From Elusimicrobiota bacterium (GTDB lineage: Bacteria > Elusimicrobiota > Elusimicrobia > UBA1565): DNA of 64,000 bases. The translations under genes and the position numbers were made by a program. The stretch is taken from contig JACRDO010000118.1 in assembly GCA_016212885.1 (NCBI GenBank), positions 6,296 to 70,295 on the forward strand, in the 5' to 3' direction. Below, piece by piece: positions 2,531 through 31,133 of the stretch (the stretch's first letter is position 1; each line of letters starts with the position of its first letter). Below the pieces are notes generated by a model. That model ran no database searches and was not told the DNA's origin. It saw nothing but the letters and a program-made list of their open reading frames with translations.

Positions 2531-2744
2531 CTCTTAGCGAATCCACGTACTGCTGCGGCTCGATGTTCTTCCAGATATCTTTGCCCAGTCCCTGAAGTTT
2601 GGAAAGACTCGCCGGCGCAGCGGCCTCCTGCGAAGTAATAGCGGTGTCCCGCACGGACAGAAGCCGGACAGCTTCGCTGATCACTTCTTCAGATTCGACA
2701 TAATCATAGGGTGCCTCAAGATTTGCCATCGTCACAAGCGCCAT
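2511..2744 (-). CDS. VapB-type antitoxin (small acidic protein)
   Basis: ~77-aa ORF directly upstream of, and overlapping, the PIN gene. Acidic C-terminus. Start taken at the second Met (MALVTMANLE…). Confidence 0.5.
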   Translation of the reverse strand: MALVTMANLEAPYDYVESEEVISEAVRLLSVRDTAITSQEAAAPASLSKLQGLGKDIWKNIEPQQYVDSLRDEWEAK

Positions 2745-3477: not shown

Positions 3478-3599
3478 AGTCAGAAAAAAGGGGATGACAA
3501 TGTGGTTTTCAAGAGCGTCCGATTATACATTATTCGTCAAAGGCCTTTGCCCGCCCGGACATGTTGCTCTAATGTCTTTTTTCCTGTCGCGCGTTTGCC

Positions 3600-3629
3600 T
3601 TGACGCCGATGCGCACAATCTAATTTAAT
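3600..3629 (+). promoter_or_regulatory. candidate sigma70-like promoter for the cyclophilin gene (TTGACG…TAATTTAAT)
   Basis: TTGACG at 3600-3605 and TAATTT/TTTAAT at 3621-3629, just upstream of the ATG at 3640. The leader would be very short, so this is tentative. Confidence 0.25.
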
Positions 3630-3639
3630 CCCTATCGCT

Positions 3640-6411: not shown

Positions 6412-6428
6412 TATTGCGCGTGAAGCCC

Positions 6429-15842: not shown

Positions 15843-16190
15843 TCATTCCATGTCTTTCAGCATTATTTCTACCAAAGGCTTAACTTCAGGCACTCTTTTC
15901 TTTATCGTTTTCCATAATGTTTTGACATTAACTCCAAAGTATTCGTGGATCAACTTATCTCTCATACCTGCGATCCTTTTCCATGGAACGTCTGAATACC
16001 TACTTCTCATTCCTTCTGGAATATTCTTGACAGCCTCGCCTATAATCTCAAAGGACCTTGTTACCGCATAAATCGTCTTTTCGTCCAGGGCGAAATCATT
16101 GTAAGACAAACTCTCTGTGAACTTCTCAATCCTACCAAGCTCATCCACGATGTCCTTGACATAGTCAACATACACTCTTTTCCTAGACAT
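15843..16190 (-). CDS. hepT: HepT-family toxin (DUF86, RX4HXY motif)
   Basis: '[11 protein letters not shown]' is the R-x4-H-x-Y motif. Overlaps the upstream MntA gene. AT-rich (~40% GC) relative to the surrounding sequence. Confidence 0.75.
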
Positions 16191-16482
16191 AAACGACCTC
16201 GCGCAATATATGCTCGCCTATTTTCGGCTTCAGGGTACATTTCATGACCAAATCAACCTTTGCATCCAAAATCCTGGAAAGATACTCCTCCAGTTCCAAG
16301 AACTCAAAAAAATCAATAGGCCCCTTGAACTCCACCAGAAGGTCAATGTCACTTCTTTTATTCTGGTCATTTCTAGCGAAGGAACCAAACACACCCATCT
16401 CTTTGACCTTGAACTTTTCTTCCAATTCCTTCTTGTACATTGATAATATGGCCTGGATTTTGCTCAAGCCTAACTTGTTCAT
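16183..16482 (-). CDS. mntA: MntA-type nucleotidyltransferase antitoxin
   Basis: '[23 protein letters not shown]' is a minimal nucleotidyltransferase GS…D.D motif. Sits in the AT-rich islet. Confidence 0.75.
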
Positions 16483-16601
16483 TTCATATTCTCCCATTCG
16501 TCCCTGTCATTGTAGAAAATAGGCAATTGCGCGGGTTTCGGATAGAATGCGCCCAAGGCCTCTGAGGCGGGCCCGCGTTCCAACGATTTTAGCCGCCGGC
16601 C

Positions 16602-16772
16602 TTACGCAGCGGAGATCGCCTTCTCGGGGCAGGCCGCTTCGCAGGCGGCGCAGTCGATGCACTTCTCAGCGTCGATCTTGAATTGCTTCTCGTCCTTGAT
16701 GATGGCTTCCGACGGGCAGGTGTCGAAGCATGTCCCGCAGGCGTTGCACTTGTCGCTGATGACATAAGCCAT
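16602..16772 (-). CDS. 2x[4Fe-4S] ferredoxin
   Basis: Two CxxCxxCxxxCP motifs ('CNACGTCFDTCP', 'CIDCAACEAACP'). Start taken at MAYVISDKC. Confidence 0.8.
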   Translation of the reverse strand: MAYVISDKCNACGTCFDTCPSEAIIKDEKQFKIDAEKCIDCAACEAACPEKAISAA

Positions 16773-16839
16773 GAACTCTTCCTCCAAAATCTCCGATTAC
16801 TTAGTATACAAAATCTCCCGTCGCGCTTGAATGCGGGCG

Positions 16840-17217
16840 CTACGCCCCCTTCTTCCTTATGACCACCGCGTAATGGAAGTCCGGGGTCTTCATCAGGCGC
16901 CCCATCTTGACCAGCTCTTCGCAGGCGAGCCGGTCGGTCTCGTCGTGCGGGGTGATGAGGCCGATGGTCCCTTCCTGGGCTTGGGTGTTCTCGAGCTCCT
17001 CGAGCATCCACTTCATCCGGTGGGTGATCTCGCCGTCCTGCGGGGGACGGCGGCCTTGGGCGATGTCCTCCCGCAGGCGGTCGTTGAACTCCTTGAGGCC
17101 GAGCCGCGCGATGTCCCGCTGGTACGGCTCGTCTCCCTCGATCCAATGCTTCAACGCCCATCCGCCGATCACGACGACCACCAGCATCAGCGTGAGGAAG
17201 AGCCAGAGCGAGCTCAT
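16840..17217 (-). CDS. hypothetical single-pass membrane protein
   Basis: Start at 'MSSLWLFLTLMLVVVVIGGWAL' (TM helix). No recognisable domain. Divergent from ettA. Confidence 0.4.
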   Translation of the reverse strand: MSSLWLFLTLMLVVVVIGGWALKHWIEGDEPYQRDIARLGLKEFNDRLREDIAQGRRPPQDGEITHRMKWMLEELENTQAQEGTIGLITPHDETDRLACEELVKMGRLMKTPDFHYAVVIRKKGA

Positions 17218-17270
17218 AGGCGGATTATGGCAGAGGCGGCGCCCCCGGTCAAGAAGATATAATTCCACCC

Positions 17271-18962
17271 ATGGCAACCACGGTAGACACGAAGCAGATC
17301 ATCTTCTCGATGGCGGGCGTCAGCCGCTTCTATCCGCCCAAGAAGCAGGTCATCAAGGACATCTATCTCTCCTTCTATTACGGCGCAAAGATCGGGGTCC
17401 TGGGCGACAACGGCAGCGGCAAGAGCACGCTCCTGCGCGTCATCGCGGGCAAGGACAAGGACTTCGCCGGGCAGGTCTCCTTCTCGAAGGGCTACACGGT
17501 CGGCATGCTGGACCAGGAGCCCCGGCTCGACGCGCAGAAGTCGGTGCGCGAGATCGTGGAGGAGGGCGCGGCGGAGACGATCAAGCTCCTGAAGGAATAC
17601 GAGGACGTCGGCTCGAAGATCACACAGAGCACGCCCCCGGAGGAGATGGAGAGGCTCCTGAACCGGCAGGGGACCCTGCAGGAGAAGATCGAGGCGGCCG
17701 GCGCCTGGGAGCTCGACAACAAGCTCGAGATCGCCATGGACGCCCTGCGCTGCCCTCCAGCGGACATGAAGGTCGGCCTGATCTCGGGCGGGGAGAAGCG
17801 CCGCGCGGCCCTCTGCCGCCTGCTTCTCGAGGAGCCGGACGTCCTGCTCTTAGACGAGCCCACCAACCACCTCGACGCGGAGTCCGTGGAGTGGCTGGAG
17901 GAGCACCTGCGCCGCTACAAGGGCACCATCATCGCGGTCACGCACGACCGCTACTTCCTCGACAACGTCGCGGGCTGGATCCTCGAGCTCGACCGCGGCG
18001 AAGGCATTCCTTGGAAGGGGAACTACGCCTCCTGGCTCGAGCAGAAGAACAGCCGGCTCGCCCGCGAGGCCAAGGCGGAGTCCCGCTACCAGAAGACCCT
18101 CGAGCGCGAGCTCGAGTGGGTGCGCATGGGGGTCAAGGGCCGCCAGGTCAAGAGCAAGGCGCGCCTCTCCGCTTACGAGATCATGCTCGAGGATGCCCCG
18201 GAGAAGCGCGAGTCGGAGCTCGAGATCTACATCCCGCCGGGGCCGCGCCTGGGCGAGTCGGTCATAGAGGCGAAGAGCCTCTCGAAATCCTACGGGGACA
18301 AGCTGCTCTTCGAGGGCCTGAGCTTCCGCCTGCCGCGCAACGGCATCGTCGGCATCATCGGCCCAAACGGCGCCGGCAAGACGACCCTCTTCAAGATCCT
18401 CACCGGCAAGGAGAAGCCGGATTCAGGCGAGATCCTCATCGGCGACTCGGTCAAGCTGAGCTATGTGGATCAGGACCGGGCCCAGCTCGACGAGGGCAAG
18501 AACGTCTGGGAGGCCATCACGGACGCCTTAGACCTGGTGAGCCTGGGCAAGCTCCAGGTCAACTCGCGCCACTACGTCTCGCGCTTCGGCTTCTCGGGCC
18601 AGGACCAGCAGAAGCCTGTCCAGGGGCTCTCGGGCGGCGAGCGCAACCGGCTCTACCTCGCCCGGATGCTCAGAGAATGCGGCAACATCCTGCTCTTAGA
18701 CGAGCCGACCAACGACCTCGACGTGCACACCATCCGCGCCCTGGAGGAGGCCATCGCGAACTTCGCGGGCTGCTGCGTCATCATCACCCACGACCGCTGG
18801 TTCCTAGACCGCCTCGCCACGCACATTCTCGCCTTCGAGGGAGAGAGCCAGGCGCGCTGGTTCGAGGGAAACTACTCTGCCTACGAGGAGGACCGCAAGC
18901 GCCGCCTGGGAGAGGACGCCGCGCGGCCCCGCCGCATCCACTACAAGAGCCTGACGAGATGA
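17271..18962 (+). CDS. ettA: energy-dependent translational throttle protein EttA (ABC-F ATPase)
   Basis: Two ABC cassettes (Walker A 'GDNGSGKST' and 'GPNGAGKTT'; signatures 'LSGGEKRR' and 'LSGGERNR'). The N-terminus 'IIFSMAGVSRFYPPKK' is typical of EttA. Confidence 0.9.
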   Translation: MATTVDTKQIIFSMAGVSRFYPPKKQVIKDIYLSFYYGAKIGVLGDNGSGKSTLLRVIAGKDKDFAGQVSFSKGYTVGMLDQEPRLDAQKSVREIVEEGAAETIKLLKEYEDVGSKITQSTPPEEMERLLNRQGTLQEKIEAAGAWELDNKLEIAMDALRCPPADMKVGLISGGEKRRAALCRLLLEEPDVLLLDEPTNHLDAESVEWLEEHLRRYKGTIIAVTHDRYFLDNVAGWILELDRGEGIPWKGNYASWLEQKNSRLAREAKAESRYQKTLERELEWVRMGVKGRQVKSKARLSAYEIMLEDAPEKRESELEIYIPPGPRLGESVIEAKSLSKSYGDKLLFEGLSFRLPRNGIVGIIGPNGAGKTTLFKILTGKEKPDSGEILIGDSVKLSYVDQDRAQLDEGKNVWEAITDALDLVSLGKLQVNSRHYVSRFGFSGQDQQKPVQGLSGGERNRLYLARMLRECGNILLLDEPTNDLDVHTIRALEEAIANFAGCCVIITHDRWFLDRLATHILAFEGESQARWFEGNYSAYEEDRKRRLGEDAARPRRIHYKSLTR

Positions 18963-19723
18963 AAGCCTCGGACGCGTGCGGCCGGAGCTTCACGGACTTC
19001 TACCGGAACAAGGCGCGCTTCGAGGTCATCGAGCGCGACGACGGCCACATCAGCGCGACGGACGGGCGGGCGTGGTACCTCTCCGGCTTCGCCCGCTGGC
19101 CGGCTCGGGAGAGGAAGGCGATGAGCTTCGTCCGCGGCCGGGTGCTCGACATCGGCTGCGGCATGGGCAGGCACGCCCTGCATCTCCAGAAGAAGGGATT
19201 CTCCGTCACGGGGCTCGACCTCTCCCCCGCCAACATCCGGCTCTGCCGCCTGCGCGGCCTCAAGAGGACCCTCTGCATGCCGGTGGAGGGCATCGCCGGA
19301 TTGCGCCGCGGCTCCTTCGATACCCTCCTCATGATGGGCAACAACTTCGGGCTCTTCTCCAGCTTCAAGAAGGCCCGGAAGCTCCTGCGCGAGATGCTCA
19401 GGATCACCTCGGAAGGCGCCCGGATCATCGCGGAGACGCTCGACCCCTACCGGACCCAGGAGCCCGACCACCTCGCCTACCACAAGAGGAACCGCCGGCG
19501 CGGACGCATGGGCGGCCAAGTGAGGATCCGGGTGCGCTACGCGAAGTCCGTTGGGCCGTGGCACGACTACCTGTTCGTATCCCGGAAGGAGCTGGTCCGG
19601 ATACTGGAAGGCACGGGCTGGAGGCTCTGGAAGACCTTCCGGTCAGGGGGGCCGCAATACGCGGCAGTGATCAGGAAGCTGGCCGGCGCGCAGCGCGGCC
19701 GTAGTCGTCCTCCAGCCGGATGA
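18959..19723 (+). CDS. class I SAM-dependent methyltransferase
   Basis: 'VLDIGCGMGRHALHLQKKGFSVTGLDLS' SAM-binding motif. Start overlaps the ettA stop (ATGA). Confidence 0.7.
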   Translation: MKASDACGRSFTDFYRNKARFEVIERDDGHISATDGRAWYLSGFARWPARERKAMSFVRGRVLDIGCGMGRHALHLQKKGFSVTGLDLSPANIRLCRLRGLKRTLCMPVEGIAGLRRGSFDTLLMMGNNFGLFSSFKKARKLLREMLRITSEGARIIAETLDPYRTQEPDHLAYHKRNRRRGRMGGQVRIRVRYAKSVGPWHDYLFVSRKELVRILEGTGWRLWKTFRSGGPQYAAVIRKLAGAQRGRSRPPAG

Positions 19724-20054
19724 TGTCGTCCTCCCCGAGGTAGCCGCCCAAGGCGACTTCGATCAGCACGAGGTCCTCGGCGCCCGTGTTCGCCACGCGG
19801 TGGGCCGCCTTCAGCGGAATCTCCATGGAATCTCCGAGCTCGAGCCGGATGCCGCGGCCCTCCAGGGTGGCGAGAGCCGAGCCCTTGGCCACGAACCAGT
19901 GCTCCTTACGGCGCCGGTGCTTCTGGTAGCTCAAGCGCTGGCCTGGATGGACCGTGATCCGCTTGACCTTGTAGTCCGGGGTCTCAGCCAGGATCTCCCA
20001 GCCGCCCCAGGGCCGCTTGTCGGATTTCTTTCGAGACTGGGTTTTTCTGGCCAT
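19671..20054 (-). CDS. cupin-domain protein (mannose-6-phosphate-isomerase-like cupin_2)
   Basis: 'ITVHPGQRLSYQKHRRRKEHWFVAKGSA…' is a cupin beta-barrel motif with His ligands. Confidence 0.6.
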   Translation of the reverse strand: MARKTQSRKKSDKRPWGGWEILAETPDYKVKRITVHPGQRLSYQKHRRRKEHWFVAKGSALATLEGRGIRLELGDSMEIPLKAAHRVANTGAEDLVLIEVALGGYLGEDDIIRLEDDYGRAARRPAS

Positions 20055-20280
20055 TTCAAACCTGCCTCATTTCGCCGGGCACCGGCCTATCCTTAATGCC
20101 GAGGAAGCACTCGACCTGCTGTTCGACGTTGATGTCGCCGGCCGGGATGGCGCGGCGGCAATGGGGGCAGCTGAGCTGCATGGGATTTAGAGTTTATGCG
20201 CGCTGGGAAGGCGTGTCAAGCGGCCGGGCGGAAACTATTTCCACGCTCGATCGTATTACTCTTTAGGACTATCGCGAGAT

Positions 20281-20520
20281 TTGACAGGCGGTATCATAAA
20301 TGATACTATTATAGAGGCCGATGTGGGGATCAAGCGCGTCGGCGGCTTTCTGTTCGTCACGTATATCGGGGACCACGCTCCTATGTACGTCCATGTGCGA
20401 ATCCCGGGCGGGCGCGAGCTGGGGCGATGGGACATCCAGGATCAGAAGCCGCTGGACCGCGGACTCAAGGTGACGAATAGGCTGCGCAAAGCTCTGGCGA
20501 AGGCGGGGTATCTTCGATGA
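20281..20520 (+). CDS. DUF4160-family small protein
   Basis: 'FLFVTYIGDHAPMYVHVR' resembles the DUF4160 core (…DH.P.H.HV). Stop overlaps the next start (ATGA). Confidence 0.5.
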   Translation: MTGGIINDTIIEADVGIKRVGGFLFVTYIGDHAPMYVHVRIPGGRELGRWDIQDQKPLDRGLKVTNRLRKALAKAGYLR

Positions 20521-21146
20521 GAGCGAACAAGACGCTTTTTGTCCTATTGACCGATGAACCCCTGGCATTGAAGGGCATCCTCCGCAACGGCTCCTGCGTC
20601 GCGCAGGCAGTGAAGCGGCATGCCTCGGATTCGGACTTCAAGGCTTTGACCAAGCTTGCCTGCAGCCTGGCCAGCCACGATGCCGCCAAAAGGATGCGGA
20701 GGGCCGTCATCGAGGCCGATGCGAAGACATTGCAGGTGGAATTCCATAACGGCGAGACATTCCGTGTCCACAAGGGCGCACTCGCCGGACTCGATGCTTC
20801 TCCTCTTTCCCGCGTCAGCCTGTCCAAATGGGGTTATGACTTCACGGTCTTTCAGGCGTCGGGCCGAAAAGTCCGTGTGCCCTGGGACGCAGTCCGGCAT
20901 CTGTGCGACCCGGATTACGAGCATTCCCCTGAGAGAGCGCCGGTCGAACCCAAGCCGAGGGTCGCCGCGAATATCCGGGCCTTGAGGAAAGCGCGCGGGA
21001 TATCGAGCTACGAGCTGGCGCGGCGGACGGGCATCGCCCGGCCGAACATCGCGCGGATCGAGAATGCCAGGACATCGCCGTCTCTGACGACGCTGGAGAA
21101 GATCGCGAAGGCGCTGGGAGTGCCGGTGGCCGGGCTGTTTGAGTGA
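20517..21146 (+). CDS. DUF2442-like domain fused to an XRE-family HTH
   Basis: C-terminal 'IRALRKARGISSYELARRTGIARPNIARIENARTSPSLTTLEKIAKALG' is a canonical HTH_XRE. The N-terminal ~120 aa are DUF2442-like, the usual partner of DUF4160. Confidence 0.55.
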   Translation: MRANKTLFVLLTDEPLALKGILRNGSCVAQAVKRHASDSDFKALTKLACSLASHDAAKRMRRAVIEADAKTLQVEFHNGETFRVHKGALAGLDASPLSRVSLSKWGYDFTVFQASGRKVRVPWDAVRHLCDPDYEHSPERAPVEPKPRVAANIRALRKARGISSYELARRTGIARPNIARIENARTSPSLTTLEKIAKALGVPVAGLFE

Positions 21147-21350
21147 CCGGCTGCAGCGTCGTCGCCTCGCAGGAGATTTATGCTGGAAATATCTGTATTT
21201 AATGTGTGCTTCCCCGGAATTTCCGGGCAAGTCCATCCATCCCGCTGAAGAACCGACTAGCTGACTCGCTGGACTCCTGTTTGAGACTGGCATCCAAAAC
21301 AAGGAGGAAACGCTGATCTTCCTGGCGGACGCGGCGGCGGCTTCAAGTCT

Positions 21351-24300
21351 TTACTTCGGCAGGCCGTAGATCTCGGTCATGTAGTCGCCGAGGGTTCGCG
21401 CCTGGATCCGGTCGTTCTCGATGCGCAGGATGAGTGTGTCCGGAGTCGCGCCTTGGCGCACAAGGCGGCCCAAGCTCGCGATGGGCGGCAGGTCAAAATC
21501 CTGGCCGTAGTAGGCGATGGCGTCGATGGCCGGCGCGCGAAGCATCCCGGCCAGGCGCTCCTCAAGCCGCAAGGCGTGGAAAGTCGCCCGGTCGAGTAAG
21601 CGCACGGCCCGCAGGATGCGCGCGCGCAGCCTGGCCGCGCGCTCCAGCGCCGAGGCCGCGGCCTGCAGGTCCTCGGCCTCGGTGAAGCGGGGCGCCCACT
21701 GGAAGCGGACCGCGCTCGCCCGGCCGAAGGGGGCGAGCCGCACGGCCGCGGCCGAGGGTTTGGCGGAGAACTGCTCGGCCGCGCCGCGCTCGTAGGCCCG
21801 GCGGGCGACTTCCATAAGGCTCTTCAGATCCGACTTCGAGTAGCCGTTGCGCCGGGCCGCGTTCTCGCTCAAAGCCACCTCCAGGGACCCCACGGGCCGC
21901 TGGGTGGTCGAGGGCAGGCGCCCCGTCTGCATGTGGAAAGGGAGGATGGACTTGAGCGCGCGGATGCGCAGGTTGAAGCGCCCGCTGACCGGATCGCGCG
22001 AAACGCTGACGATCTGGGTGTCGGGGGTGAAGAACTTGCCGGTGGCCAGCCAGCTTAGGCACTCGGCGCATAGCTTTTTGAAATCCCCGCCGCTGTTGCT
22101 GACCACGATGGCGCGGACCTTGGCCGCTGTCCCGGCCGCGGCGAGGGCCGCGAGGATGGCGGCGCGCTCGGCGCAAAGAGTGACCTCGCGGCTGAGCTCC
22201 ACGTTGGGGGCCGAGGCCCAGCGTCCGTCCGAGAGCTCGACCGCGGCGTGCACGTGGAAGCCCGAGAAATTCGGCTGATCGCGGGCCTCGTCCTGCACCG
22301 CGGCGTAGGTCTCCAGGGCCTTGGCAACCAAGACCTTGAGGCGTCCCGGGCCCGGCACTTCGCCGGATACGTCCACCTGGCTCAGGGCTTTCTCCAGGTC
22401 CCCGGCAGGCAACGGGCTCGGGGTGCGGTCGGCTTCTATGGAAGCGCTCAGCATCTTGAGGAAAAGCTCGGTGGCGCGGGCGTCGCGGCCGTTGGCGGCC
22501 CATTCCTGGGCCAGCAGCTCGGCGTAGGCCTGCGGGAGGCGCTCGAGCTCCTGGGCGCTCATGAGGTTCAAGACCACGTCGGCCTTCTCGCGCAAAGGCA
22601 GGATGTTCGCGCGCTCGTTGACCAGCAGATGCGCCCACCCCCGCAGGTTCTGTCCCACCGCAATGCCGCGTTCGGTCTTATCGCGCTTCAAGCGCCTCGC
22701 CAGGCGCACCGCGGTCGGCGCGGCCAGGTAGACGTTGAGCGAGCTGTGGCCCTCGATGGCCTTGAGGAAGGCCTCGTGGGAGGCGAAGATCGAGTCCACG
22801 ATGACGACGTCGTCGGGGCCGAGCTGGAGGAACTCTCCGCTGTCGAAAGTGGTCGGGCCGTCGATGACGTGCCGGGGCAGCTCGATGCGGCCTCCCGCCA
22901 GCAAGGTCTTGAGGTCCTGCGCCGCGCGGTCGAGATAGAGCGCGTCTGGACGGTCGTAGTCCGGGCGGCCCTGCGGGTCCGGGGCGATCTCGTTGGGCGG
23001 CTTGAAGTAGCGGTCCACCGGGAATACCGCGATGCGGCCCTTGAGGGTCTTATGGATCTGCTCGGCCAGGGTGGATTTTCCGGCCGCTGTCGGGGCCTCG
23101 AGGAGGATGGCGCTGCGGCCGGGGAGCGCCTGGACGCGGTCGAGGAGGGAGGCGAGCTTCTCGTCAGCGTCCGCGCTCTTGAAGCGCGGGTAATCCGTGC
23201 CCCGGAACTCCCGCTTCACCAGGGCCTGGGCGTCGGCCAGGAGGCCGTCGGCGGGGGCCGAGGTCTTGCCCCGGCCCAAGGCGCCGGCTTTCTCGGCGGC
23301 CCGCACCACCGGCCCGAGCGCCGCGTTCGCGGCGCGCGGCAGGTACATCTGGGCCAGCACCGTGCCGCCCATCACGACGGCCACGATCGCGTTGAAGGCC
23401 CAGCGCAGATCCCCGCCCATCAGCGCCGCGAAGAGGTGCATGAGGCTTCCCGCGATGAGCAGGATCTTGTAGAGCGGCGAGATGCCTTTCGGGGCCCGCC
23501 CTTCGTTCCTGAAGATGAGGTAGTTCCGGCGTATCTGGGGAGCGTCGAGCACCCACAGGATGCCCATGGCCGCGGTGAACGCGGCAGTGAGCCCCGCGGA
23601 GAGCGGCAGCAGGGCTTGGGTCGCGATCAGCGCCACCGGGATCGCAGTGCCGATTATCGCGGCCAGGGTCGCCTTCAGGGCCCGGGCATCGCGCTTGAAA
23701 TAGTTCAGCTGCCCGATGACGGCCAGGCTCTCGACCACGCCGGCTACGTTGGCGGCGTTCCACCAGAGGCTCGAGCCCTGGCCGATGGAGACCAGGGACA
23801 GCAGGCTCGCGGCCGCGAACCACATGAGCGGCCCGCTCAGGACCACGTCCTTGACGCCTTCGCGGCCCATCTTGAAATTGGTGATGATCTGCGGGATGCC
23901 GATGACGCTCAGGGTGATAGAGCCGGCGGCCGCGACCAGCCCGACATGCGCGGCCAGGAGGGGCGCCGTTGCGGCCAGAGCGGCCGCGGCCAAAGCGCCG
24001 GCGGCCAACCGGACCGCGGGCTTCTGCCAGAAGGTCTTGGCCTGGGCCGGAGCAGGCGCCGCGGAAAGAACGGGCACGGTCTCGGAGACGGCAACGGGCC
24101 CAGCCTGGAGCTTGGCGGGCTGAAGGCCCGAAGGCCGCAGATCGGCCGTGAGCGTTTCCGGAGCCTGGGCCGCGGCCTCGCTTTCGATTCCGGATACCAG
24201 CTTGTCGCCGTGCAGATCCGCGAAAACCTTCTCGGCCGAGCCCTTGGAGGATTCGGCCGGGGCGTCTTTCTTGAAGCCCGGCTGCTCCAGGCTCTTTTGG

Positions 24301-24758
24301 ACCTGCTCGGAAACCGTTTGAAGGGCCGGGATCTCGCGGCGGACATCGTGCTTTGCGGGAGCCGGCTTAGATACATCCGCCGGGACATGGGCCGCGACCC
24401 GGGTCTCCCCGATGACTGGAGCGACCAAGCGCGCGACCGCCTGAACCGGCTGCGCCTTGGCCGTTGTTTGCGGGGCGAGAACCGGCTTAACGACGTCTGT
24501 ATGGGATCTGGCCGGGGCCGGCAGATAGAGCGACGCAAGCCCTGAGACCGGCGCCAGCGCCGTGTTCTGAATCGGATTGGAGAGCCCGTTGACGGGCACT
24601 CCGATAGTGAGGGCCTGGACAGGAACGATCTGAACCGGTGAAGCGCTTGCCTGGACGTTCCCCGCGTTCGTGACGACGGCTTGTGCCGCGGCCGGAGCGA
24701 CCTCCCAGGCCAGCTGCACCAGCGCCATCAGGATCGAGAACCAGCGCTTCATATTCAC
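21351..24758 (-). CDS. membrane protein: signal peptide + low-complexity region + 7-TM PQ-loop domain + uridine-kinase-like P-loop domain + cytidine-deaminase-like zinc domain
   Basis: Two PQ-loop motifs ('GIPQIITNFKMG', 'DAPQIRRNYLIF') within roughly 7 TM helices. Walker A 'LLEAPTAAGKSTLAEQI' with a Udk-like fold ('VFPVDRYF', 'VVIVDSIFA'). Deaminase motifs 'LCAERAAILAA' and 'KLCAECLSWL' (H/C-A-E and C-x-x-C zinc ligands). Confidence 0.6.
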   Translation of the reverse strand: MNMKRWFSILMALVQLAWEVAPAAAQAVVTNAGNVQASASPVQIVPVQALTIGVPVNGLSNPIQNTALAPVSGLASLYLPAPARSHTDVVKPVLAPQTTAKAQPVQAVARLVAPVIGETRVAAHVPADVSKPAPAKHDVRREIPALQTVSEQVQKSLEQPGFKKDAPAESSKGSAEKVFADLHGDKLVSGIESEAAAQAPETLTADLRPSGLQPAKLQAGPVAVSETVPVLSAAPAPAQAKTFWQKPAVRLAAGALAAAALAATAPLLAAHVGLVAAAGSITLSVIGIPQIITNFKMGREGVKDVVLSGPLMWFAAASLLSLVSIGQGSSLWWNAANVAGVVESLAVIGQLNYFKRDARALKATLAAIIGTAIPVALIATQALLPLSAGLTAAFTAAMGILWVLDAPQIRRNYLIFRNEGRAPKGISPLYKILLIAGSLMHLFAALMGGDLRWAFNAIVAVVMGGTVLAQMYLPRAANAALGPVVRAAEKAGALGRGKTSAPADGLLADAQALVKREFRGTDYPRFKSADADEKLASLLDRVQALPGRSAILLEAPTAAGKSTLAEQIHKTLKGRIAVFPVDRYFKPPNEIAPDPQGRPDYDRPDALYLDRAAQDLKTLLAGGRIELPRHVIDGPTTFDSGEFLQLGPDDVVIVDSIFASHEAFLKAIEGHSSLNVYLAAPTAVRLARRLKRDKTERGIAVGQNLRGWAHLLVNERANILPLREKADVVLNLMSAQELERLPQAYAELLAQEWAANGRDARATELFLKMLSASIEADRTPSPLPAGDLEKALSQVDVSGEVPGPGRLKVLVAKALETYAAVQDEARDQPNFSGFHVHAAVELSDGRWASAPNVELSREVTLCAERAAILAALAAAGTAAKVRAIVVSNSGGDFKKLCAECLSWLATGKFFTPDTQIVSVSRDPVSGRFNLRIRALKSILPFHMQTGRLPSTTQRPVGSLEVALSENAARRNGYSKSDLKSLMEVARRAYERGAAEQFSAKPSAAAVRLAPFGRASAVRFQWAPRFTEAEDLQAAASALERAARLRARILRAVRLLDRATFHALRLEERLAGMLRAPAIDAIAYYGQDFDLPPIASLGRLVRQGATPDTLILRIENDRIQARTLGDYMTEIYGLPK

Positions 24759-24845
24759 AGTGTATGCGGCGATTAGGCTTGGAACCTGGGTCTAATAGGG
24801 AAGGGAACGGGCGGTAAAAGGACTATGCCTTGGTGGGCCGTCAAA

Positions 24846-24872
24846 AAGGCCCCAGTTTCCCGGGGCCCTTTG
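24846..24872 (-). terminator. putative Rho-independent terminator downstream of cas3
   Basis: On the minus strand: GGCCCC-gggaaact-GGGGCC stem-loop followed by TTTTT. Located ~180 nt after the cas3 stop. Confidence 0.45.
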
Positions 24873-25053
24873 AGGTCGTCTATGCGCTGTCCGTCAAACA
24901 ATATCACCTCCCAGCGACCGCTTTTGTCCGGGCCGACTTTCCCGCGGGCCTGCGGCAGGAAACTTTTCGACCGGACACTCGTATTACTCTTTACGGGGAA
25001 GGGCGCATGACACGAATCTCGGTCCACCCCAGCTCCGCCGGCTTTCCCTTGCC

Positions 25054-27321
25054 TCACCCCACCCAAGTCGACGGGTCCGCGGCCGGGACACTCTCATCGG
25101 CCGTGAGCCCGAACTCCTCGGTGTAGAGGGCCTTGCGCTCCGGCTTGAGGATCAGGAAGAGATTCTGCACGGCATAGAGTACCCCGGCCTTCAGCCAGTC
25201 CTCCGCCTGCTTGCTCGGGATGTTGACGGAGTAGCCCTGCAGGCGCCTTGCCAGGGCCCTAAGGACCGCCGGGGACTTCACGTATTCGGCCTGCTTGAGC
25301 ATCTCGGTGGACAGGCCGCGGTTGTCCGGAGGCCCCCACGGCACGATGATGGCGGCCTGCCGGCAGCCGTCGATGGACTTAAACGCCTTGGCCGCGTCTT
25401 CGAACCGGAACTGCTCGCGCATCGCCAGGATCCCCAGGGGATCTTGAGCCCGGTGGAGGCTCTGGTGGAGCCTTGCGCAGGTGTCCGGAGCCAGGAAATC
25501 GATCTTTGAATCCATCGTGTAGAGTGTCCTGGCCAGGTCCGCGGCCTTGCGCAGATGCTCGACCATGGGCTTGCTCGGGGAGTCGAAGAGGACCACGCGG
25601 CCCTCCATCAGCCGGCTCTCGCGGTTGCAGCGGCCGGCCGACTGGACGACGGAATCCAGCCCGGCCATGGCCCGGAAGACGACCGGGAAATCCATGTCCA
25701 CTCCCGCCTCGACCGGCTGGGTCAGGACGGCCCGGACCGGCTTGCCCGCGGCGGCCAAAGCCTTCTTGATCTCCATGAGCCTCTCCCGGCGGTGCCGGGC
25801 GCACATCAAGGCCGAGAGGTGGAACACGGGCTCGTCGGGATAGCGCGCTTTCACGAGCTTGATCAAGGCGCGCGCGTCCTCCGGCCGATTGACGATCGCC
25901 AGGACTCTTTTCTCGGCGTAGACCGCTTCCGCGGCCTCCCCCAGGGTCTTCGCCGGCGAATGATCGACGCGGACGCGCAGCGAGGCGAAGGATTCTTCCA
26001 CCTCCTCCGGGGTCCCGGCCAGCTCCGTGATCCTCTTGAACCCCAGGATCTTCTGGGCGCCCGCCGAGGAACTCCCGAGCAGGTCCGGCTGGACGGAAGC
26101 GGACAGGACGATGCTCGAGCCGTGATGCTCCGCGAGGCTCTCGAGCATGTCCAGCGCCGGCGCCAGGAAGGCGCTCGGCAGGGCCTGCGGCTCCTCGAGG
26201 ATGATGACGCTGCGCGCGAGGTTGTGGAGCCTCCGGCACTCCGAGGGGCTCCTTGCGAAGAGGCTTTCGAAGAACCGGAGGGCGGTGGTGACGATGAGCG
26301 GAGCGTCCCAGTTCTCCGCCGCCAGCCGGGTCCGGCGGTGCTCTTTCACAAGCTCCATGCCGCCGTGCTCTTCGATGAAGGCCGGCTCATAGACCTTCGC
26401 TCCGGGGACGATGAGCGCCTTCCGGAAGGCGGCAACGGTCTGGTCCGGGATGGTCATGAACGGCACGACCACGATGATGCGCTCGAGCTTGTGGGCCAAG
26501 GCGTGGCCTAATGCGAAGGCCAGGCCGGCGTAGGTCTTCCCCCCTCCGGTCGGGACCCTGAGGCTGAAGACCCCTGGCGGCTGCGCCGCACAGCCGCGGC
26601 AGCGGTCCAGGATTCGGCGGCGGCGGACATTGATGGGCCTCTCATCCGCCTCGCCCAGGACCCTCCGCATATATTTGTCGAACCGGTCCGCCAGCTCGCG
26701 CAGCGGCGGATAGGCCTCCTGCGCGGCCGGCTTCCCCTCCGAATAGAAGGCCTCGGTATCCAGGAAGTCCGCGTCCGCCAGCGCCGAGAACAGCAGGCGG
26801 GTCTTCAGCTCCATATAGCGCAGGAGCTCCTCCCCCGGGAGCTTCAGCGAGGCGGGATAGAACGGAGGCAAGCCTTTCCGGAAAGGCTCCTGCAGGCTCT
26901 TTGGGAACGCGCCCGGCTCGAACTCGGAGAGGATGGACCTGCTCAGCTGGTAGCGGACGTCCTGCCACTCGCTCAAGTTCGGGAGTCCGCCGTGATGGCC
27001 GGCGATAGCCATGGCCAGCGGGGTGCCGCTCGGCCCGAGCCTCTCGACCGCATAGACCGCGCCGGCCGAGGAGTGGTCTATCGCCCCGGGGACCCCCTCC
27101 AAGTGCGCGCTCTCGCCGCCCGCGGCCCGGATGCGGTCTTGGAACTTCGGGTGGTACTTCCCCAGGTCGTGGAGCAGGCCCGCGGCCCTGCCCCAGTCCC
27201 CGGCCGAGAACTTCGCGGCGAAGGCCGCGGCGCGCTCCCCGACCTCCTTGAGATGCTCGTCGAGGGAATGCTCCCGATTGGCCTGAGGTTCGATGTGAGC
27301 GAGGGCGCCCACGGCAGTCAC
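25054..27321 (-). CDS. cas3: CRISPR-associated helicase/endonuclease Cas3 (HD nuclease + DExH helicase), orphan
   Basis: HD motifs 'HSLDEH', 'LLHDLGKY', 'IAGHHGGL'. Helicase motif I 'LRVPTGGGKTYAG', motif II 'VIILEEPQAL', motif VI 'QSAGRCNRE'. Start placed at GTG/TTG around 27321-27324 because the upstream M2 peptidase gene ends at 27318. The first 130 aa of the listed ORF overlap that gene and are not coding. Confidence 0.75.
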   Translation of the reverse strand: MTAVGALAHIEPQANREHSLDEHLKEVGERAAAFAAKFSAGDWGRAAGLLHDLGKYHPKFQDRIRAAGGESAHLEGVPGAIDHSSAGAVYAVERLGPSGTPLAMAIAGHHGGLPNLSEWQDVRYQLSRSILSEFEPGAFPKSLQEPFRKGLPPFYPASLKLPGEELLRYMELKTRLLFSALADADFLDTEAFYSEGKPAAQEAYPPLRELADRFDKYMRRVLGEADERPINVRRRRILDRCRGCAAQPPGVFSLRVPTGGGKTYAGLAFALGHALAHKLERIIVVVPFMTIPDQTVAAFRKALIVPGAKVYEPAFIEEHGGMELVKEHRRTRLAAENWDAPLIVTTALRFFESLFARSPSECRRLHNLARSVIILEEPQALPSAFLAPALDMLESLAEHHGSSIVLSASVQPDLLGSSSAGAQKILGFKRITELAGTPEEVEESFASLRVRVDHSPAKTLGEAAEAVYAEKRVLAIVNRPEDARALIKLVKARYPDEPVFHLSALMCARHRRERLMEIKKALAAAGKPVRAVLTQPVEAGVDMDFPVVFRAMAGLDSVVQSAGRCNRESRLMEGRVVLFDSPSKPMVEHLRKAADLARTLYTMDSKIDFLAPDTCARLHQSLHRAQDPLGILAMREQFRFEDAAKAFKSIDGCRQAAIIVPWGPPDNRGLSTEMLKQAEYVKSPAVLRALARRLQGYSVNIPSKQAEDWLKAGVLYAVQNLFLILKPERKALYTEEFGLTADESVPAADPSTWVG

Positions 27322-29258
27322 CAAGCGCAGGATCGGCCCGAGTTCTCTTTCTTGAGAAACTCGGTCAGGGGCTCGAAGTAGTCCATCATCGCCTTGGTGC
27401 TGAGGTCCGAGCCGGTCTTCTCGCGCAGGAGCTCGCGCCAGTCGCGGGTCGCGCCCGCGGACAGGAGCCCCTTGAGGAAGGCGCCCGCTTCCTTGCTGTT
27501 GGAATAATCGCAGGTGCGCGGGTCCTGCTTGGCGATGTTGCGGCAGATGTAGGTATGCAGGTGGTACTTGAGAACCGTGGCGATCGCGTAGTTGTAGTAG
27601 TAGACGGGGTTGTCGTTGAGGTGGGTCTTGGTGCAGGCGTCGCAGTACTCCTCTGCGCGGGGCGAAGGTGGCTTCACGCCCTGGTATTTGGCGACATGCT
27701 CCCACCAGCGCGCGTTCCACTGCGCGGTGGACAGGTTGTTCTCGTAGATGTCGCGCTCCCAGGCGGACACCGTTCCGGCGGCCCAGGGCAGGAAGGAAAC
27801 GGTCTCCACGAGGGCTTCGTTGAGCAGCCAGCGGGTCTGGTCGATCTCCTTGCCGGCCGGGAGCACCCCCAGGCGGCGGAGATAGGACTGCCGCATGGAG
27901 GCGAGGGAGCCCAATTCCGCGATGCCCTCATGGAAGGCGCGGTTCGCGCCCTCGCGCAGGAGGAATGGCACATCGGGCCGCGTGTAGGCCTGGTAGTAGA
28001 AGATGTGCCCCAGCTCATGGTGGGCAGTCATGAACCATTCCCTGTCCGGCTTGATGTTCATGAGGGAGCGCATGTCGCCGGACAAGTCGATGTTCCACGC
28101 CGAGGCGTGGGTATTCTTCTTGCGCTTGGAGTCCAGGGGCAGGGCGTAGAGGTCCGACTTCTTCCAGAACGACTCCGGCAGGCGGTCGAACCCCAGCGAG
28201 ACATAGTAGTCTTCCGCGGCCTTGACGAACCACGACGGTTTTCTGTCCTTGAAATAGGGGTCGAGGTCCATGCCCTCCACGATCCCGGGCCATTCCTGGG
28301 ACCAGCGGTTGCCGAGCCAATGGGCCGGGATGAGCTTGGGCGGGGGCTGCCCGTAGCGCTTGGCCAGCTCATACTTGGTCCAGCAATGGAGCTGTTCGTA
28401 GAGCGGCCGTATGTCGCGCAGGAAGCCGTCCAGGAGCGCGGACATCTCGGCAGCTGTCATCCCGTAGTCCGCGGTCTGCAGGCCGAAGTAGGAGCTGAAG
28501 CCGAAGCTCTTCGCGACCGCGTTGCGCAGGGCCCTCAACTCGGCGAGGCCCGGCTTGAGGACCGGGCCGATCTCCTTGGAGGCTTCCCAGACCTTCAGGC
28601 GCACGGAGAGGTCTCTCGTCGAGACGAGGAGGTCGTCGATCTCGTTGGCCGTGGTCGGCTTGGCGCAGGAGCCGTCCAAACTTTCCAAACTTCGTAGGTT
28701 TGGACGTATCGAACCTACGCCGTTTGGAAGGTTCGATGCGTCGGGGTTCTTCTCCAGGCAGAAAACGAAGGAGTCCATGGCGCTCGACTGCCGGCCTTCA
28801 GCCTCGACGCGCTTGGCCGCGATCTCCGGCAGGGTGGCGGGGTTTTCGGCAGCTGCGAGGCGGATCTTCTCCAACTGGCGCACCGTCAAAGGCTGGAGGT
28901 CCCCCTTCCTGGCGAGGAAGCGCTGGACCTGCTCGATGACATAGCGGCTTCCGGTGAAGGAGGCCATGGCCTTGTTGGCCGCGATGCGGCCCCCGTCGTG
29001 CTCGGGCGTCACGTCGGTCGAGGCGTCCCAGGACGCTTCCTGGGACACGGCGTAGAGGCCTTGATAGTAGCCGTTATGCGCTTTAACGAAAGCCTCGGCC
29101 TCCTTTTCGATGTCTCCGGCCGGGGAGCTGGAGCACTCTTCGGTCACGATGACTTTCACGCCGGCCTTGATCATTTTCCCGGCGCCCGGCGAAGGGGCGG
29201 CGGAGAGCGGCGCGGCCAGCAGGATGGAGATCAGGAACCCCGGGATTTGCCTTTGCAT
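27318..29258 (-). CDS. secreted peptidase family M2 (angiotensin-converting-enzyme-like dipeptidyl carboxypeptidase) with N-terminal extension
   Basis: Zinc motifs 'HHELGH' … 'HEGIAE' at ACE-like spacing. Signal peptide 'MQRQIPGFLISILLAAPLSAAP'. An in-frame copy of the palindromic repeat lies at 28674-28742. Confidence 0.7.
   Translation of the reverse strand: MQRQIPGFLISILLAAPLSAAPSPGAGKMIKAGVKVIVTEECSSSPAGDIEKEAEAFVKAHNGYYQGLYAVSQEASWDASTDVTPEHDGGRIAANKAMASFTGSRYVIEQVQRFLARKGDLQPLTVRQLEKIRLAAAENPATLPEIAAKRVEAEGRQSSAMDSFVFCLEKNPDASNLPNGVGSIRPNLRSLESLDGSCAKPTTANEIDDLLVSTRDLSVRLKVWEASKEIGPVLKPGLAELRALRNAVAKSFGFSSYFGLQTADYGMTAAEMSALLDGFLRDIRPLYEQLHCWTKYELAKRYGQPPPKLIPAHWLGNRWSQEWPGIVEGMDLDPYFKDRKPSWFVKAAEDYYVSLGFDRLPESFWKKSDLYALPLDSKRKKNTHASAWNIDLSGDMRSLMNIKPDREWFMTAHHELGHIFYYQAYTRPDVPFLLREGANRAFHEGIAELGSLASMRQSYLRRLGVLPAGKEIDQTRWLLNEALVETVSFLPWAAGTVSAWERDIYENNLSTAQWNARWWEHVAKYQGVKPPSPRAEEYCDACTKTHLNDNPVYYYNYAIATVLKYHLHTYICRNIAKQDPRTCDYSNSKEAGAFLKGLLSAGATRDWRELLREKTGSDLSTKAMMDYFEPLTEFLKKENSGRSCAW
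28674..28742 (+). repeat. palindromic repeat family, copy A (in frame inside the M2 peptidase CDS)
   Basis: GTCCAAAC…CGTAGGTTTGGACGTATCGAACCTACGCCGTTTGGAAGGTTCGATGCG. Nested inverted repeats. Encodes …SNLPNGVGSIRPNLRSLESLDG… in the host frame. Confidence 0.7.
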
Positions 29259-29309
29259 GTATGGGAATGTACCACATTTTATGCAGTGCTGTTTTGATAG
29301 AATCCGGCC

Positions 29310-31133
29310 ATGGCCGGCTCCATCTTCAGGCTTCCGGACCAGGCCCCGTTCGGCCTGCTCGCCCGCGCCTATCCAGGCAGATTCAGCCTCTCGCAGGGGC
29401 TCCGCATAGAGGCCCGAAAGCGAGGGCGCATGGGCTACCGCATCGAACCTCAAAGCGGCAAATTGCTCATCGAGCACGGCGAGCGCTCGGACATAATGCG
29501 GGCTTTGGGCTCTCTGCTGAGCCGCCCGGACATCAAGAAAGAGCTGGGCGAGCCGCCTCTCGCCTTCCGCGGCTTGATGCTGGATGTGAGCCGCAACGGG
29601 GTCATCCGGGTTCCGGCCCTGAAGACGGTCCTTCTGCGCTTGGCGCTTTTGGGCTACAACCGCTTCTGCCTCTACACGGAGGACACCTGCGAGGTCAAAG
29701 GCCATCCGCTGATAGGATACCGGAGAGGGAGATACAGCCAAAGGGAGCTCAGCGAGCTCGACGCATTCGCCCGGGCCCTGGGCATCGAGATGTTCCCCTG
29801 CATCCAGACCCTGGGCCATCTGGAGCAGGTGATCAAGCACGAGCGGTATTGGCCCCTGCGGGACAACGAGCGGGTGCTGTCCGTCGAGCATCCGCGCTCC
29901 CGCAAGCTGGTCGAGACCCTCATCCGCCAAGCGCGCAAGCCTTACCAAAGCGGCCTCATCCACCTAGGCTTAGACGAGACCTGGGGCATCGGACGCGGCG
30001 AGACCTTCATCCACAAGAAGCCCATGGACCCGCGCTGGATGTACCTGCGCCATGTCCGCTGGCTGGCCTCGGTCTGCCGCAGATTGAAGCTCAAGCCCAT
30101 GATGTGGGGCGACGTGGTGGTCGGCTGCCATGAGAAGGCCATGGACCCGGCTCAGCGCAAAGCACTGCCCAAGGGCATGACCATGGTCTATTGGGACTAC
30201 TACCGCGAGCAGGCGGCGCTCTACGAGAAGCGCATCGAAGAATACCGGAAGATGGGCTATGAGCCGCTTTGCTCTCCAGGCATCTGGAATTGGGGCTGCC
30301 TATGGCCCTCCTACCGAAAGGTCAGCCGGACCCTGCCGGTCTTCATGAAAAAGGCGAAGGAAATGGGAATCAAGCGCATGATGGCGACGGCCTGGGGCGA
30401 CGACGGGCAGGAAAGCCCCTTCGACGCGAATTGGCCGGCCCTCTGCCTTTTCGCGGAGGAGGCTTACGAACGCGCGGACGGCGCAGAAGGCGCGAAAGCG
30501 CGCATGCGGGCCGTCTGCGGCGCGGATTACGACGCCGTAGTCCGAGTCGGAGACCTGGAGCTCTATCCCGGGAAGGAGAGCCTCTGCGGCTCCCTTGGGA
30601 AAGCCTTGCTCTGGGAAGACCCCATGGCTGGGCGGATCTCGCACGGCCTGGGGAAGCTCCGTCTATCGGCGCGCTTCAGGCGCCTCGCCGGCCGCATCCG
30701 CTCCGACGCGAGGAAGATGCCTTCGGATTTCCACGACCTCTTCGCCTACGCCTGCGCGCTCGCCGAGTTCCTTGTTCTCAAAGCGGACATCTTCAACGAG
30801 ACCCGCTCGGCTTATGTCCGGCGCGACAAAGCGGCCTTGAGGAAAATCGCTTCGAGCATCCCGGCGCGCGTCCGGGCCCTGGACGACCTCCACGCTGCGC
30901 GCAAGAAGCTGTGGTTTGCTGAATTCAAGCCTTTCGGCTGGGAGGTGCTGGACGGCCGCTTCGGTGGGCTGAGGGCCAGGCTCTTGACGATGAAGGAGCG
31001 CCTGGACGCCTATCTGGCCGGCAGGCTCCCCGCGATCGAGGAGCTGGATGAGAAGCCCGCGCAAGAATTCGCGTCCCTTGCCGGCAAACAGCTCACTCAC
31101 GCGAAGCTCCATACGGCGTCATGGATTCATTGA
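29310..31133 (+). CDS. glycoside hydrolase family 20-like beta-N-acetylhexosaminidase
   Basis: 'FRGLMLDVSRN', 'LGYNRFCLYTEDT' and 'IHLGLDETWG' (HxGGDE-like catalytic pair) resemble the GH20 TIM-barrel. Confidence 0.55.
   Translation: MAGSIFRLPDQAPFGLLARAYPGRFSLSQGLRIEARKRGRMGYRIEPQSGKLLIEHGERSDIMRALGSLLSRPDIKKELGEPPLAFRGLMLDVSRNGVIRVPALKTVLLRLALLGYNRFCLYTEDTCEVKGHPLIGYRRGRYSQRELSELDAFARALGIEMFPCIQTLGHLEQVIKHERYWPLRDNERVLSVEHPRSRKLVETLIRQARKPYQSGLIHLGLDETWGIGRGETFIHKKPMDPRWMYLRHVRWLASVCRRLKLKPMMWGDVVVGCHEKAMDPAQRKALPKGMTMVYWDYYREQAALYEKRIEEYRKMGYEPLCSPGIWNWGCLWPSYRKVSRTLPVFMKKAKEMGIKRMMATAWGDDGQESPFDANWPALCLFAEEAYERADGAEGAKARMRAVCGADYDAVVRVGDLELYPGKESLCGSLGKALLWEDPMAGRISHGLGKLRLSARFRRLAGRIRSDARKMPSDFHDLFAYACALAEFLVLKADIFNETRSAYVRRDKAALRKIASSIPARVRALDDLHAARKKLWFAEFKPFGWEVLDGRFGGLRARLLTMKERLDAYLAGRLPAIEELDEKPAQEFASLAGKQLTHAKLHTASWIH

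Follow-up and report, generated by a model that had tools for sequence, protein, structure and literature searches.

The stretch of DNA analysed here, which we call the window, is a 64-kb segment of contig JACRDO010000118.1 from an Elusimicrobiota bacterium, and its minus strand carries at 21351..24752 a gene (1133 codons plus a stop codon at 21351-21353) whose product we refer to as the tri-fusion protein. In this single polypeptide, a conserved leader and a long linker precede a transmembrane (TM) core of the PQ-loop/SWEET type, which is followed by a kinase domain resembling uridine kinase (Udk) and by a domain resembling cytidine deaminase (CDA), and we propose that the protein serves in nucleoside salvage. 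The open reading frame (ORF) found mechanically at 21351..24758 on the minus strand is one uninterrupted frame of 1135 codons from a GTG at 24758. The deposited product, MBI5244271.1 (“hypothetical protein”, from an Elusimicrobia metagenome-assembled genome (MAG), 73-kb contig), is 1133 amino acids (aa) long and 100% identical to the gene product, and starts at the ATG at 24752, two codons inside the mechanical ORF; residue positions below follow its 1133-aa numbering. Because the window is rich in G+C (~65%), long ORFs lie on both strands, and a 765-aa plus-strand ORF over the gene was set aside as an Arg/Gly-rich antisense shadow. No paralogue of the tri-fusion protein was present among the other genes of the 64-kb window.

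Independent assemblies supplied seven more proteins, of 1022-1134 aa, that were collinear with 96-100% of the query at 57-72% identity, and an eighth homologue was truncated within the deaminase. Since these seven proteins share the layout of the tri-fusion, we consider it to be neither frameshifted nor an assembly chimera, and the undetected frameshift that an initial annotation of the region had allowed for is absent. Identity to the seven homologues was 33-40% in the N-terminal region (where alignable), 57-74% in the TM block, 62-82% in the kinase, 65-77% in the catalytic part of the deaminase and 52-67% in the C-terminal part, so that all structured parts are conserved. Every motif quoted in the initial annotation was located in the 1133-aa protein. 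The structural modelling that it recommended gave a concordant picture, in that Foldseek searches of AlphaFold models recovered all three folds (PQ-loop/SWEET-type, uridine-cytidine kinase (UCK) and CDA), with the full model returning UCK, CDA and cystinosin.

Domains of the tri-fusion protein

All parts of the gene are given below by their coordinates on the minus strand. The membrane domain opens with an extra hydrophobic helix, TM0 (aa 245-267; 23952..24020), which is preceded by a conserved FWxKPAVR and, in the models, separated from TM1 by a turn of 2 residues. The seven-helix PQ-loop/SWEET-fold core that follows (aa 270-470; 23343..23945) is arranged 3+1+3, as two three-helix bundles and a linker helix; TM1 and TM5 are each kinked by a Pro-Gln motif, and both PQ motifs were found in the sequence (GIPQIITNFKMG, aa 285-296, 23865-23900, and DAPQIRRNYLIF, aa 403-414, 23511-23546). 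Invariant W/N pairs lie in TM3 (LWWNAAN, 23748-23768) and TM7 (RWAFNA, 23388-23405), and the invariant polar residues within the helices (W, N, Q, H, S) are the same in every family subtype. The polytopic block with two PQ-loop signatures described initially is thus present, but with one helix more, TM0. Of the 21 TM domains of the family, 17 matched PF04193 (PQ-loop) at E <= 0.1, the best with 5.1e-11, and precomputed matches to this model are recorded for many homologues. On the strength of the models, the carrier is a predicted member of the PQ-loop/SWEET fold class; the Pnu family (PnuC/PnuT) gave no sequence or fold match, and PnuC was absent among the fold matches listed. After TM7, an amphipathic helix and a helical connector (aa 471-545; 23118..23342) lead to the kinase.

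The Udk/PRK-family nucleoside-kinase-like domain (aa 546-745; 22518..23117) scored 39.4 bits against the PF00485 (PRK) cut-off of 22, which is the outcome the initial annotation anticipated when it pointed to a Walker-A kinase of Udk/PRK type, and its catalytic motifs are intact. These comprise the P-loop APTAAGKST (23070-23096, within the motif LLEAPTAAGKSTLAEQI, aa 550-566), VFPVDRYF (aa 576-583, with the catalytic-Asp VDRYF), VVIVDSIFA (aa 649-657), DYDRPDA (22941-22961) and the LID motif RRLKRDKTERG (22665-22697). Its best PDB match was the Thermus thermophilus uridine-cytidine kinase (ttCK, 3ASY/3W8R; E 1e-14 to 1e-15), and the P-loop, the catalytic Asp, the DxPDA ribose contact and the RRxxRDxxERG LID align with ttCK and UCK1 and are near-invariant in a 64-sequence family alignment. 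A conserved helical segment, here called “mid” (aa 746-815; 22308..22517), comes next; it occurs in all kinase-bearing family members, and the variable C-terminal modules attach after it.

In the tri-fusion this module is the cytidine-deaminase catalytic domain (aa 816-945; 21918..22307), which carries N-V-E (22185-22205), C-A-E-R (within 22146-22178; LCAERAAILAA, aa 859-869) and C-A-E-C (within 22047-22076; KLCAECLSWL, aa 893-902), all invariant in 8 aligned homologues. A profile of the eight homologous CDA modules matched tetrameric CDAs (7ZOB, 4e-5), and FS.F.V.AA, N-V-E, C-A-E-R and C-x-x-C line up with those of solved CDAs and do not vary among the eight sequences, in keeping with the deaminase zinc ligands pointed out initially. 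Foldseek returned EfCDA, mouse CDA and B. subtilis CDA at a target-normalised TM of 0.6-0.7. From these motifs we read the domain as a CDA that has diverged but keeps its active site intact, with a predicted deaminase activity. The remaining C-terminal domain (aa 946-1133; 21354..21917) has a CDA-like order of secondary structure and no zinc ligands; a profile-profile comparison of the two halves (hhalign) gave a weak E of 0.009, and these ~190 residues are probably a second, zinc-less pseudo-CDA domain like that of two-domain (E. coli-type) CDAs.

At the other end of the protein, the N-terminal leader (aa 1-25; MKRWFSILMALVQLAWEVAPAAA, followed by QA; 24678..24752), which we judged by reading the sequences directly, resembles a Sec signal peptide with a basic n-region, an h-region, Pro/Gly and a conserved A-x-A site. 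A leader of this kind (consensus KKxLAxLLAxLQVAWSFSxGAYEAxAQ) begins every long family member. It is followed by a low-complexity linker (aa 26-239; 24036..24677; A 18%, V 13%, P 11%, S 8%, L 8%, Q 7%), which is predicted to be disordered (pLDDT ~30) except for short helices and which contains a short conserved motif (aa 172-186, SAEKVFADLHGDKLV, 24195..24239; family consensus GAAxxFAALxGExLI). Leader and linker motif are both kept in paralogues whose enzyme modules differ widely, even in proteins that have a CDA but no TM domain, and the conservation of the leader is unusually strong for a signal peptide. Considered as a general sorting signal, the leader was sought by regular expression in all six frames of the window and matched this gene alone.

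A modular family in Elusimicrobia

A census with the TM-domain profile against 1.84 billion cluster representatives (E <= 0.001) yielded 51 proteins only, and every named or located member came from Elusimicrobia MAGs, mostly from groundwater. The commonest form, of ~750-800 aa, consists of the TM domain and the Udk-like kinase alone. The tri-fusion form adds the divergent CDA, and some paralogues carry instead a canonical two-domain CDA (H-A-E / PCGGC); because this unrelated CDA is joined after the same mid helix, we take a different CDA type to have been fused here independently. Further forms combine the kinase with an adenylate-kinase-like nucleoside monophosphate (NMP) kinase or carry the NMP kinase without Udk. 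In a single example, P0036 (ENA contig, 5.9 kb), one ORF encodes the TM domain, the Udk-like kinase and a complete nine-segment CdsA (phosphatidate cytidylyltransferase; match to 4Q2G, E 2e-18). This fusion links the family to the use of CTP, and it could reflect a lost stop codon between adjacent genes.

Other paralogues are extended at the opposite end. In P0086, P0092, P0094, P0084 and P0090, and at 4468-6774 of locus L013, a DEDD (RNase T/DnaQ-like) exonuclease and/or a HAD-IIB-like phosphatase lies between the leader and the PQ-loop domain, an arrangement which suggests that the same carrier is linked to the breakdown of nucleic acids. At its C-terminus, P0094 has in addition a beta-lactamase-like serine hydrolase domain. 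The HAD module had a single, weak PDB sequence match (trehalose-6-phosphate phosphatase, E 0.15) and a Pfam ISN1 match that spans motif I only, so that “nucleotidase” is a provisional label for it. Proteins without the TM domain also carry the divergent CDA: P0074-P0076 combine it with the leader and linker of the family, and one, P0077, has it with no leader. By eye, P0074, P0075 and P0076 keep the zinc and catalytic residues, and in P0077, which has CGER and CADC, the two Cys pairs and the catalytic Glu are still present. A TM-plus-kinase gene and a separate leader-plus-CDA gene occur together in one assembly, GCA_038060535.1.

The family therefore displays at least six kinds of fused module, and all but one of them (the beta-lactamase-like domain of P0094) act on nucleic acids, nucleosides or nucleotides. 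Because paralogues swap the last module or add N-terminal enzymes, the transporter appears to be the constant part of a modular family for scavenging nucleic acids and nucleosides. The sole conserved-looking functional neighbourhood that we found for the family is that of locus L008 (143-4515; the near-identical L024 shares it), in which a TM-plus-Udk-like core gene is followed after 56 bp by a canonical udk and then by an adenosine deaminase gene, both above NCBIfam cut-offs, with a large serine recombinase just beyond.

Membrane topology, proposed mechanism and competing readings

In the family TM alignment we read ~15-18 Lys/Arg residues on the PQ-loop side and ~1 on the other side. This bias, the need of the kinases for ATP and the helix parity imposed by the CdsA of P0036 support a cytoplasmic C-terminus; in P0036 the catalytic loop of the CdsA that follows must face the cytoplasm, which would place the kinase there as well. 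TM0 is as hydrophobic as the core helices and has positive charges on its N-terminal side; in P0080 an acidic loop of 33 residues separates it from TM1, and one stand-alone family member starts directly with TM0, all of which fits a helix spanning the membrane from inside to outside. A leader resembling a signal peptide followed by TM0 and seven TM helices would, however, put the C-terminus outside, in conflict with a cytoplasmic C-terminus. Accordingly, what had been described as a signal peptide and a periplasmic Ala/Pro/Gln-rich linker stands as far as its features go, with the n-, h- and c-regions, the conserved A-x-A and a disordered A/P/Q-rich linker all visible, but export and a periplasmic placement conflict with TM0 and with the cytoplasmic C-terminus.

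Two resolutions can be considered. Either TM0 does not span the membrane and the N-terminal region is periplasmic, which would suit the exonuclease and phosphatase paralogues, or the leader is not an export signal and the whole is an all-cytoplasmic eight-TM protein like some PnuC. The former resembles the e(P4)/NadN-PnuC-NadR route of H. influenzae. A crude Hessa-scale free-energy estimate and hydrophobic moments did not separate leader, TM0 and core helices from one another.

With moderate confidence, we interpret the tri-fusion protein as a self-contained inner-membrane nucleoside-salvage unit that couples uptake to phosphorylation and deamination in the cytoplasm. In this proposal, the PQ-loop/SWEET core would pass a ribonucleoside across the membrane by facilitated diffusion, and the Udk-like domain, lying at the cytoplasmic end of TM7 and active as its motifs predict, would phosphorylate it with ATP. 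The charged product would be held inside and the inward gradient kept up, amounting to metabolic trapping. The CDA, whose activity is likewise predicted from motifs, would turn cytidine (or deoxycytidine) into its uridine counterpart, either as a supply for the kinase or to keep the C and U pools in balance. A Rosetta-stone argument suggests nucleosides as the cargo of the carrier, since the same TM domain is fused to many modules of nucleotide metabolism. The capture-and-trap reading offered in the initial annotation is supported by the three folds, their motifs and the modular fusions of the paralogues, among them the two unrelated CDA types joined at one and the same position, and by the canonical udk and adenosine deaminase genes beside the core gene in the L008/L024 lineage. 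Its pyrimidine element fares less well: the logic of salvage is retained, but the base-contacting Tyr/His of UCK2 are not conserved, and pyrimidine specificity is at most tentative. As to base preference, the CDA and the CdsA would point to cytidine; purines would also agree with the NMP kinase and with the adenosine deaminase encoded nearby.

A bolder extension, to which we attach only tentative weight and which we think rather less likely than not to hold, is that the family as a whole forms a covalent scavenging line around the first bacterial PQ-loop nucleoside carrier, with N-terminal modules outside and C-terminal modules at the cytoplasmic mouth of the carrier. The DEDD exonuclease, the HAD phosphatase and the separate leader-bearing CDA would then turn nucleic acids into nucleosides outside the membrane, and the nucleoside kinase, NMP kinase, CDA and CdsA would take the product directly from the carrier, a form of substrate channelling or group translocation. 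If true, this arrangement would need an unusual mode of membrane insertion that leaves the hydrophobic TM0 non-spanning.

Several observations weigh against reading the tri-fusion as a nucleoside-salvage unit, the topological conflict set out above among them. Transport, kinase and deaminase activities are all predicted from sequence, and several curated models score the domains below threshold. PF04193 gave the tri-fusion 15.4 bits over the whole protein and 20.1 bits for the TM domain alone (cut-off 22), a mixed outcome for the PQ-loop check suggested initially, given the matches of the other family TM domains; the companion check with PF00383 (deaminase) fell short, at 13.5 bits against a cut-off of 25. 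The NCBIfam model cyt_deam_tetra (TIGR01354) gave 41.2 bits against 113.65 (E 1.8e-10), and that for uridine kinase (udk) 74.2 bits against 180 (E 1e-20). Because the Pfam cut-off was passed and the NCBIfam equivalog level was not reached, we class the fused kinase as a member of the PRK/Udk family and not as a Udk equivalog. Tyr112, Phe114 and His117 of UCK2, within P-V-Y-D-F-x-x-H/Y of UCK2 and ttCK, are what we take to be the base-reading residues, and this Y-D-F..H/Y segment is not conserved in the fused kinase: the tri-fusion has L-P-R-H-V-I-D-G-P-T-T and the family consensus is L-P-x-H-D-M. The canonical Udk of L008 has P-V-Y-D-F-K-L-Y. Since the base-reading residues are replaced, the substrate of the fused kinase may not be uridine or cytidine, and since a fused kinase and a canonical Udk are both present in the L008/L024 lineage, the two are suggested not to be redundant. 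The known cargoes of the PQ-loop/SWEET/KDELR superfamily (cystinosin, OsSWEET2b, AtSWEET13, KDELR, SemiSWEET) are sugars, amino acids and peptides, not nucleosides. Lastly, outside the L008/L024 lineage, the neighbours of the homologues are unrelated housekeeping genes, with no conserved operon context.

Some of these points lend themselves to other explanations. The protein could be a membrane-tethered salvage complex in which the PQ-loop domain is only an anchor or scaffold, or carries an unrelated solute such as a sugar or an amino acid, with nucleosides entering by another way. The characterised relatives of the fold, which carry sugars or amino acids or bind peptides, would agree with this, and the leader-plus-CDA proteins without a TM domain indicate that the enzymes can work unfused. 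The TM core, however, is the most conserved and the sole constant part of the family, its invariant in-helix polar residues would be needless in an anchor, and the fused modules, with the single exception noted above, act on nucleic acids, nucleosides or nucleotides; we consider this explanation unlikely. We would give about as little credence to the idea that the enzyme labels mislead and that the true substrate of kinase and deaminase is something such as a modified nucleoside, an antibiotic or analogue of nucleoside type (for detoxification), nicotinamide riboside or a sugar. Such a substrate would account for the replaced base-contacting residues, the scores far under equivalog cut-offs and the coexistence of a canonical Udk in one lineage, and NRK1 and cyanobacterial PRK-like proteins do match the kinase domain. 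Against it, the ribose-binding and catalytic motifs of Udk and the N-x-E ribose contact of CDA are kept, a canonical CDA replaces the divergent one in some paralogues, and the NMP-kinase and CdsA fusions fit ordinary nucleotides.

We regard as very improbable an arrangement for export or one that is all periplasmic, in which the carrier releases nucleosides made by the enzymes, or in which a true signal peptide and a spanning TM0 leave the soluble modules extracytoplasmic. The family-wide leader, the predicted outside C-terminus, the presence of the same leader on the CDA-only proteins and the beta-lactamase-like domain of P0094, of a type often periplasmic, would fit such a layout, but the periplasm does not supply the ATP that the kinases need, Lys/Arg residues are biased to the PQ-loop side, and the CdsA fusion argues for a cytoplasmic kinase. 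Least credible of all is a defence effector that modifies nucleotide pools and is linked to the adjacent cas3, the second possibility raised in the initial annotation. Some defence systems do contain deaminases and kinases that act on nucleotide pools, and the tri-fusion gene lies ~300 bp downstream of cas3 (stop 25054) on the same strand. This cas3 is genuine and, as had been noted, an orphan: a full-length type I-C Cas3 with HD, DEAD and Cas3 C-terminal domains is encoded at 25054-27300 on the minus strand (PADLOC Cas3c, 578 bits); no further cas gene follows it directly, and TRF found no CRISPR array in the 64-kb window. PADLOC gave no match for the tri-fusion protein, however, no cas3 adjoins any homologue in 31 loci (~28 distinct), where the neighbours are of housekeeping type, and the syntenic locus L013 lacks cas3 at the corresponding place. 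Between the two genes we also read by eye a terminator-like hairpin (GGGCCCC-GGGAAACT-GGGGCC, then TTTTT; minus strand, approximately 24842..24868); a consensus scan for promoters and terminators found no promoter and did not list this hairpin. The adjacency of cas3 and the tri-fusion gene is best read as incidental.

Comparison of the window's neighbours with the homologue loci by tblastn gave no recurrent neighbour apart from the synteny with L013 (UBA9639 contig DMEZ01000033.1). Relative to window positions 17271-29963, L013 keeps the order M2 peptidase, family gene, ABC-F, and it bears a HAD-plus-TM paralogue in place of the tri-fusion and two unknown ORFs in place of cas3, so that either family members have been exchanged in place or the stretch is variable. 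An L013 ORF at 6851-8278, considered as a downstream gene, was taken as a shadow ORF; it had no family match and no CDA similarity. In the window, the mechanical cas3 ORF runs to 27720, into the 3′ end of the M2 peptidase gene, and for this reason the true cas3 start probably lies below 27318. This M2 peptidase (angiotensin-converting-enzyme-like; 27318-29963, minus strand; E 6e-98), a neutral-ceramidase-like gene (13605-15149, minus strand) and a GH20 hexosaminidase gene (29310-31133, plus strand) lie near each other; all three families are more familiar from eukaryotes or from bacteria associated with hosts. Farther away, 37755-40832 (minus strand) encodes a 1025-aa WD40 beta-propeller protein in a region of lower G+C (~0.59-0.62), and the repeats of this protein explain a tandem repeat of 126-bp period at 38517-39714. 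The G+C content is 0.545 at 2001-4000 and 0.575 at 16001-18000, compared with ~0.65.

Relation to known systems and significance

The salvage of pyrimidine nucleosides in E. coli uses the proton-driven carriers NupC and NupG (CNT, NHS/MFS) and separate soluble Udk and Cdd. Its three steps of uptake, cytidine deamination and phosphorylation to the monophosphate are those proposed here, but its carriers belong to unrelated families, whereas the tri-fusion would combine the steps in one polypeptide with a uniporter-type fold. A closer parallel is offered by the Pnu transporters, which have a seven-TM SWEET-like core with an optional extra N-terminal TM helix and whose substrates enter by facilitated diffusion and are trapped by co-localised kinases (PMC5749112). 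PnuC-NadR and PnuT-thiamine kinase share with the tri-fusion the 3+1+3 core, the optional N-terminal helix and, on the mechanism proposed here, uptake by facilitated diffusion (of a riboside or vitamin in the Pnu systems) that a genetically linked cytoplasmic P-loop kinase makes directional (PMC5749112). They differ in that carrier and kinase are separate there and form one polypeptide here, and in that the carrier here scores as PQ-loop (PF04193), the kinase belongs to the Udk/PRK family and a deaminase is attached. By analogy, the tri-fusion may be viewed as a fused counterpart of PnuC-NadR outside the Pnu family.

Compared with the rest of the PQ-loop/SWEET superfamily, the tri-fusion family adds TM0, the leader and the long linker. 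The kinase shares with the UCKs (ttCK, 3ASY/3W8R; human UCK1/UCK2) the fold (Foldseek TM ~0.7), the P-loop, the VDRYF Asp, DxPDA and an Arg-rich LID, but at ~25-27% identity, with a replaced base-reading segment, N- and C-terminal helical extensions and a membrane tether. The deaminase has the C-A-E-R ... C-x-x-C and N-x-E of the tetrameric (B. subtilis/human) type and a zinc-less second domain as in the E. coli type; it departs from known CDAs in mixing tetrameric-type ligands with a two-domain layout, in having LCAEC for PCGxC, in being preceded by the helical mid segment and in scoring under all curated cut-offs. Seven-helix MtN3/PQ-loop proteins are mostly eukaryotic and rare in bacteria (20 in UniProt in 2018), and the survey that reports this mentions no enzyme fusions of them (PMC5972207). 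In agreement with the initial impression that the arrangement is undescribed, a literature search found no account of a fusion of a PQ-loop carrier, a Udk-like kinase and a CDA; the automatic JGI label “uridine kinase/cytidine deaminase” covers two of the three parts.

The prokaryotic members of the PQ-loop/SWEET class are largely uncharacterised, and nucleosides are a concrete substrate prediction for a bacterial clade of it. If the proposed mechanism is right, the tri-fusion would be a natural uniporter-type carrier chained to enzymes that trap and convert its cargo, and a single carrier with such varied modules could show how transport is coupled to metabolism and might be adapted for engineered nucleoside uptake. 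The conflict between leader, TM0 and cytoplasmic kinase is a small membrane-topology puzzle of its own. For the organisms themselves, the family suggests an investment in nucleoside scavenging by some Elusimicrobia of groundwater.

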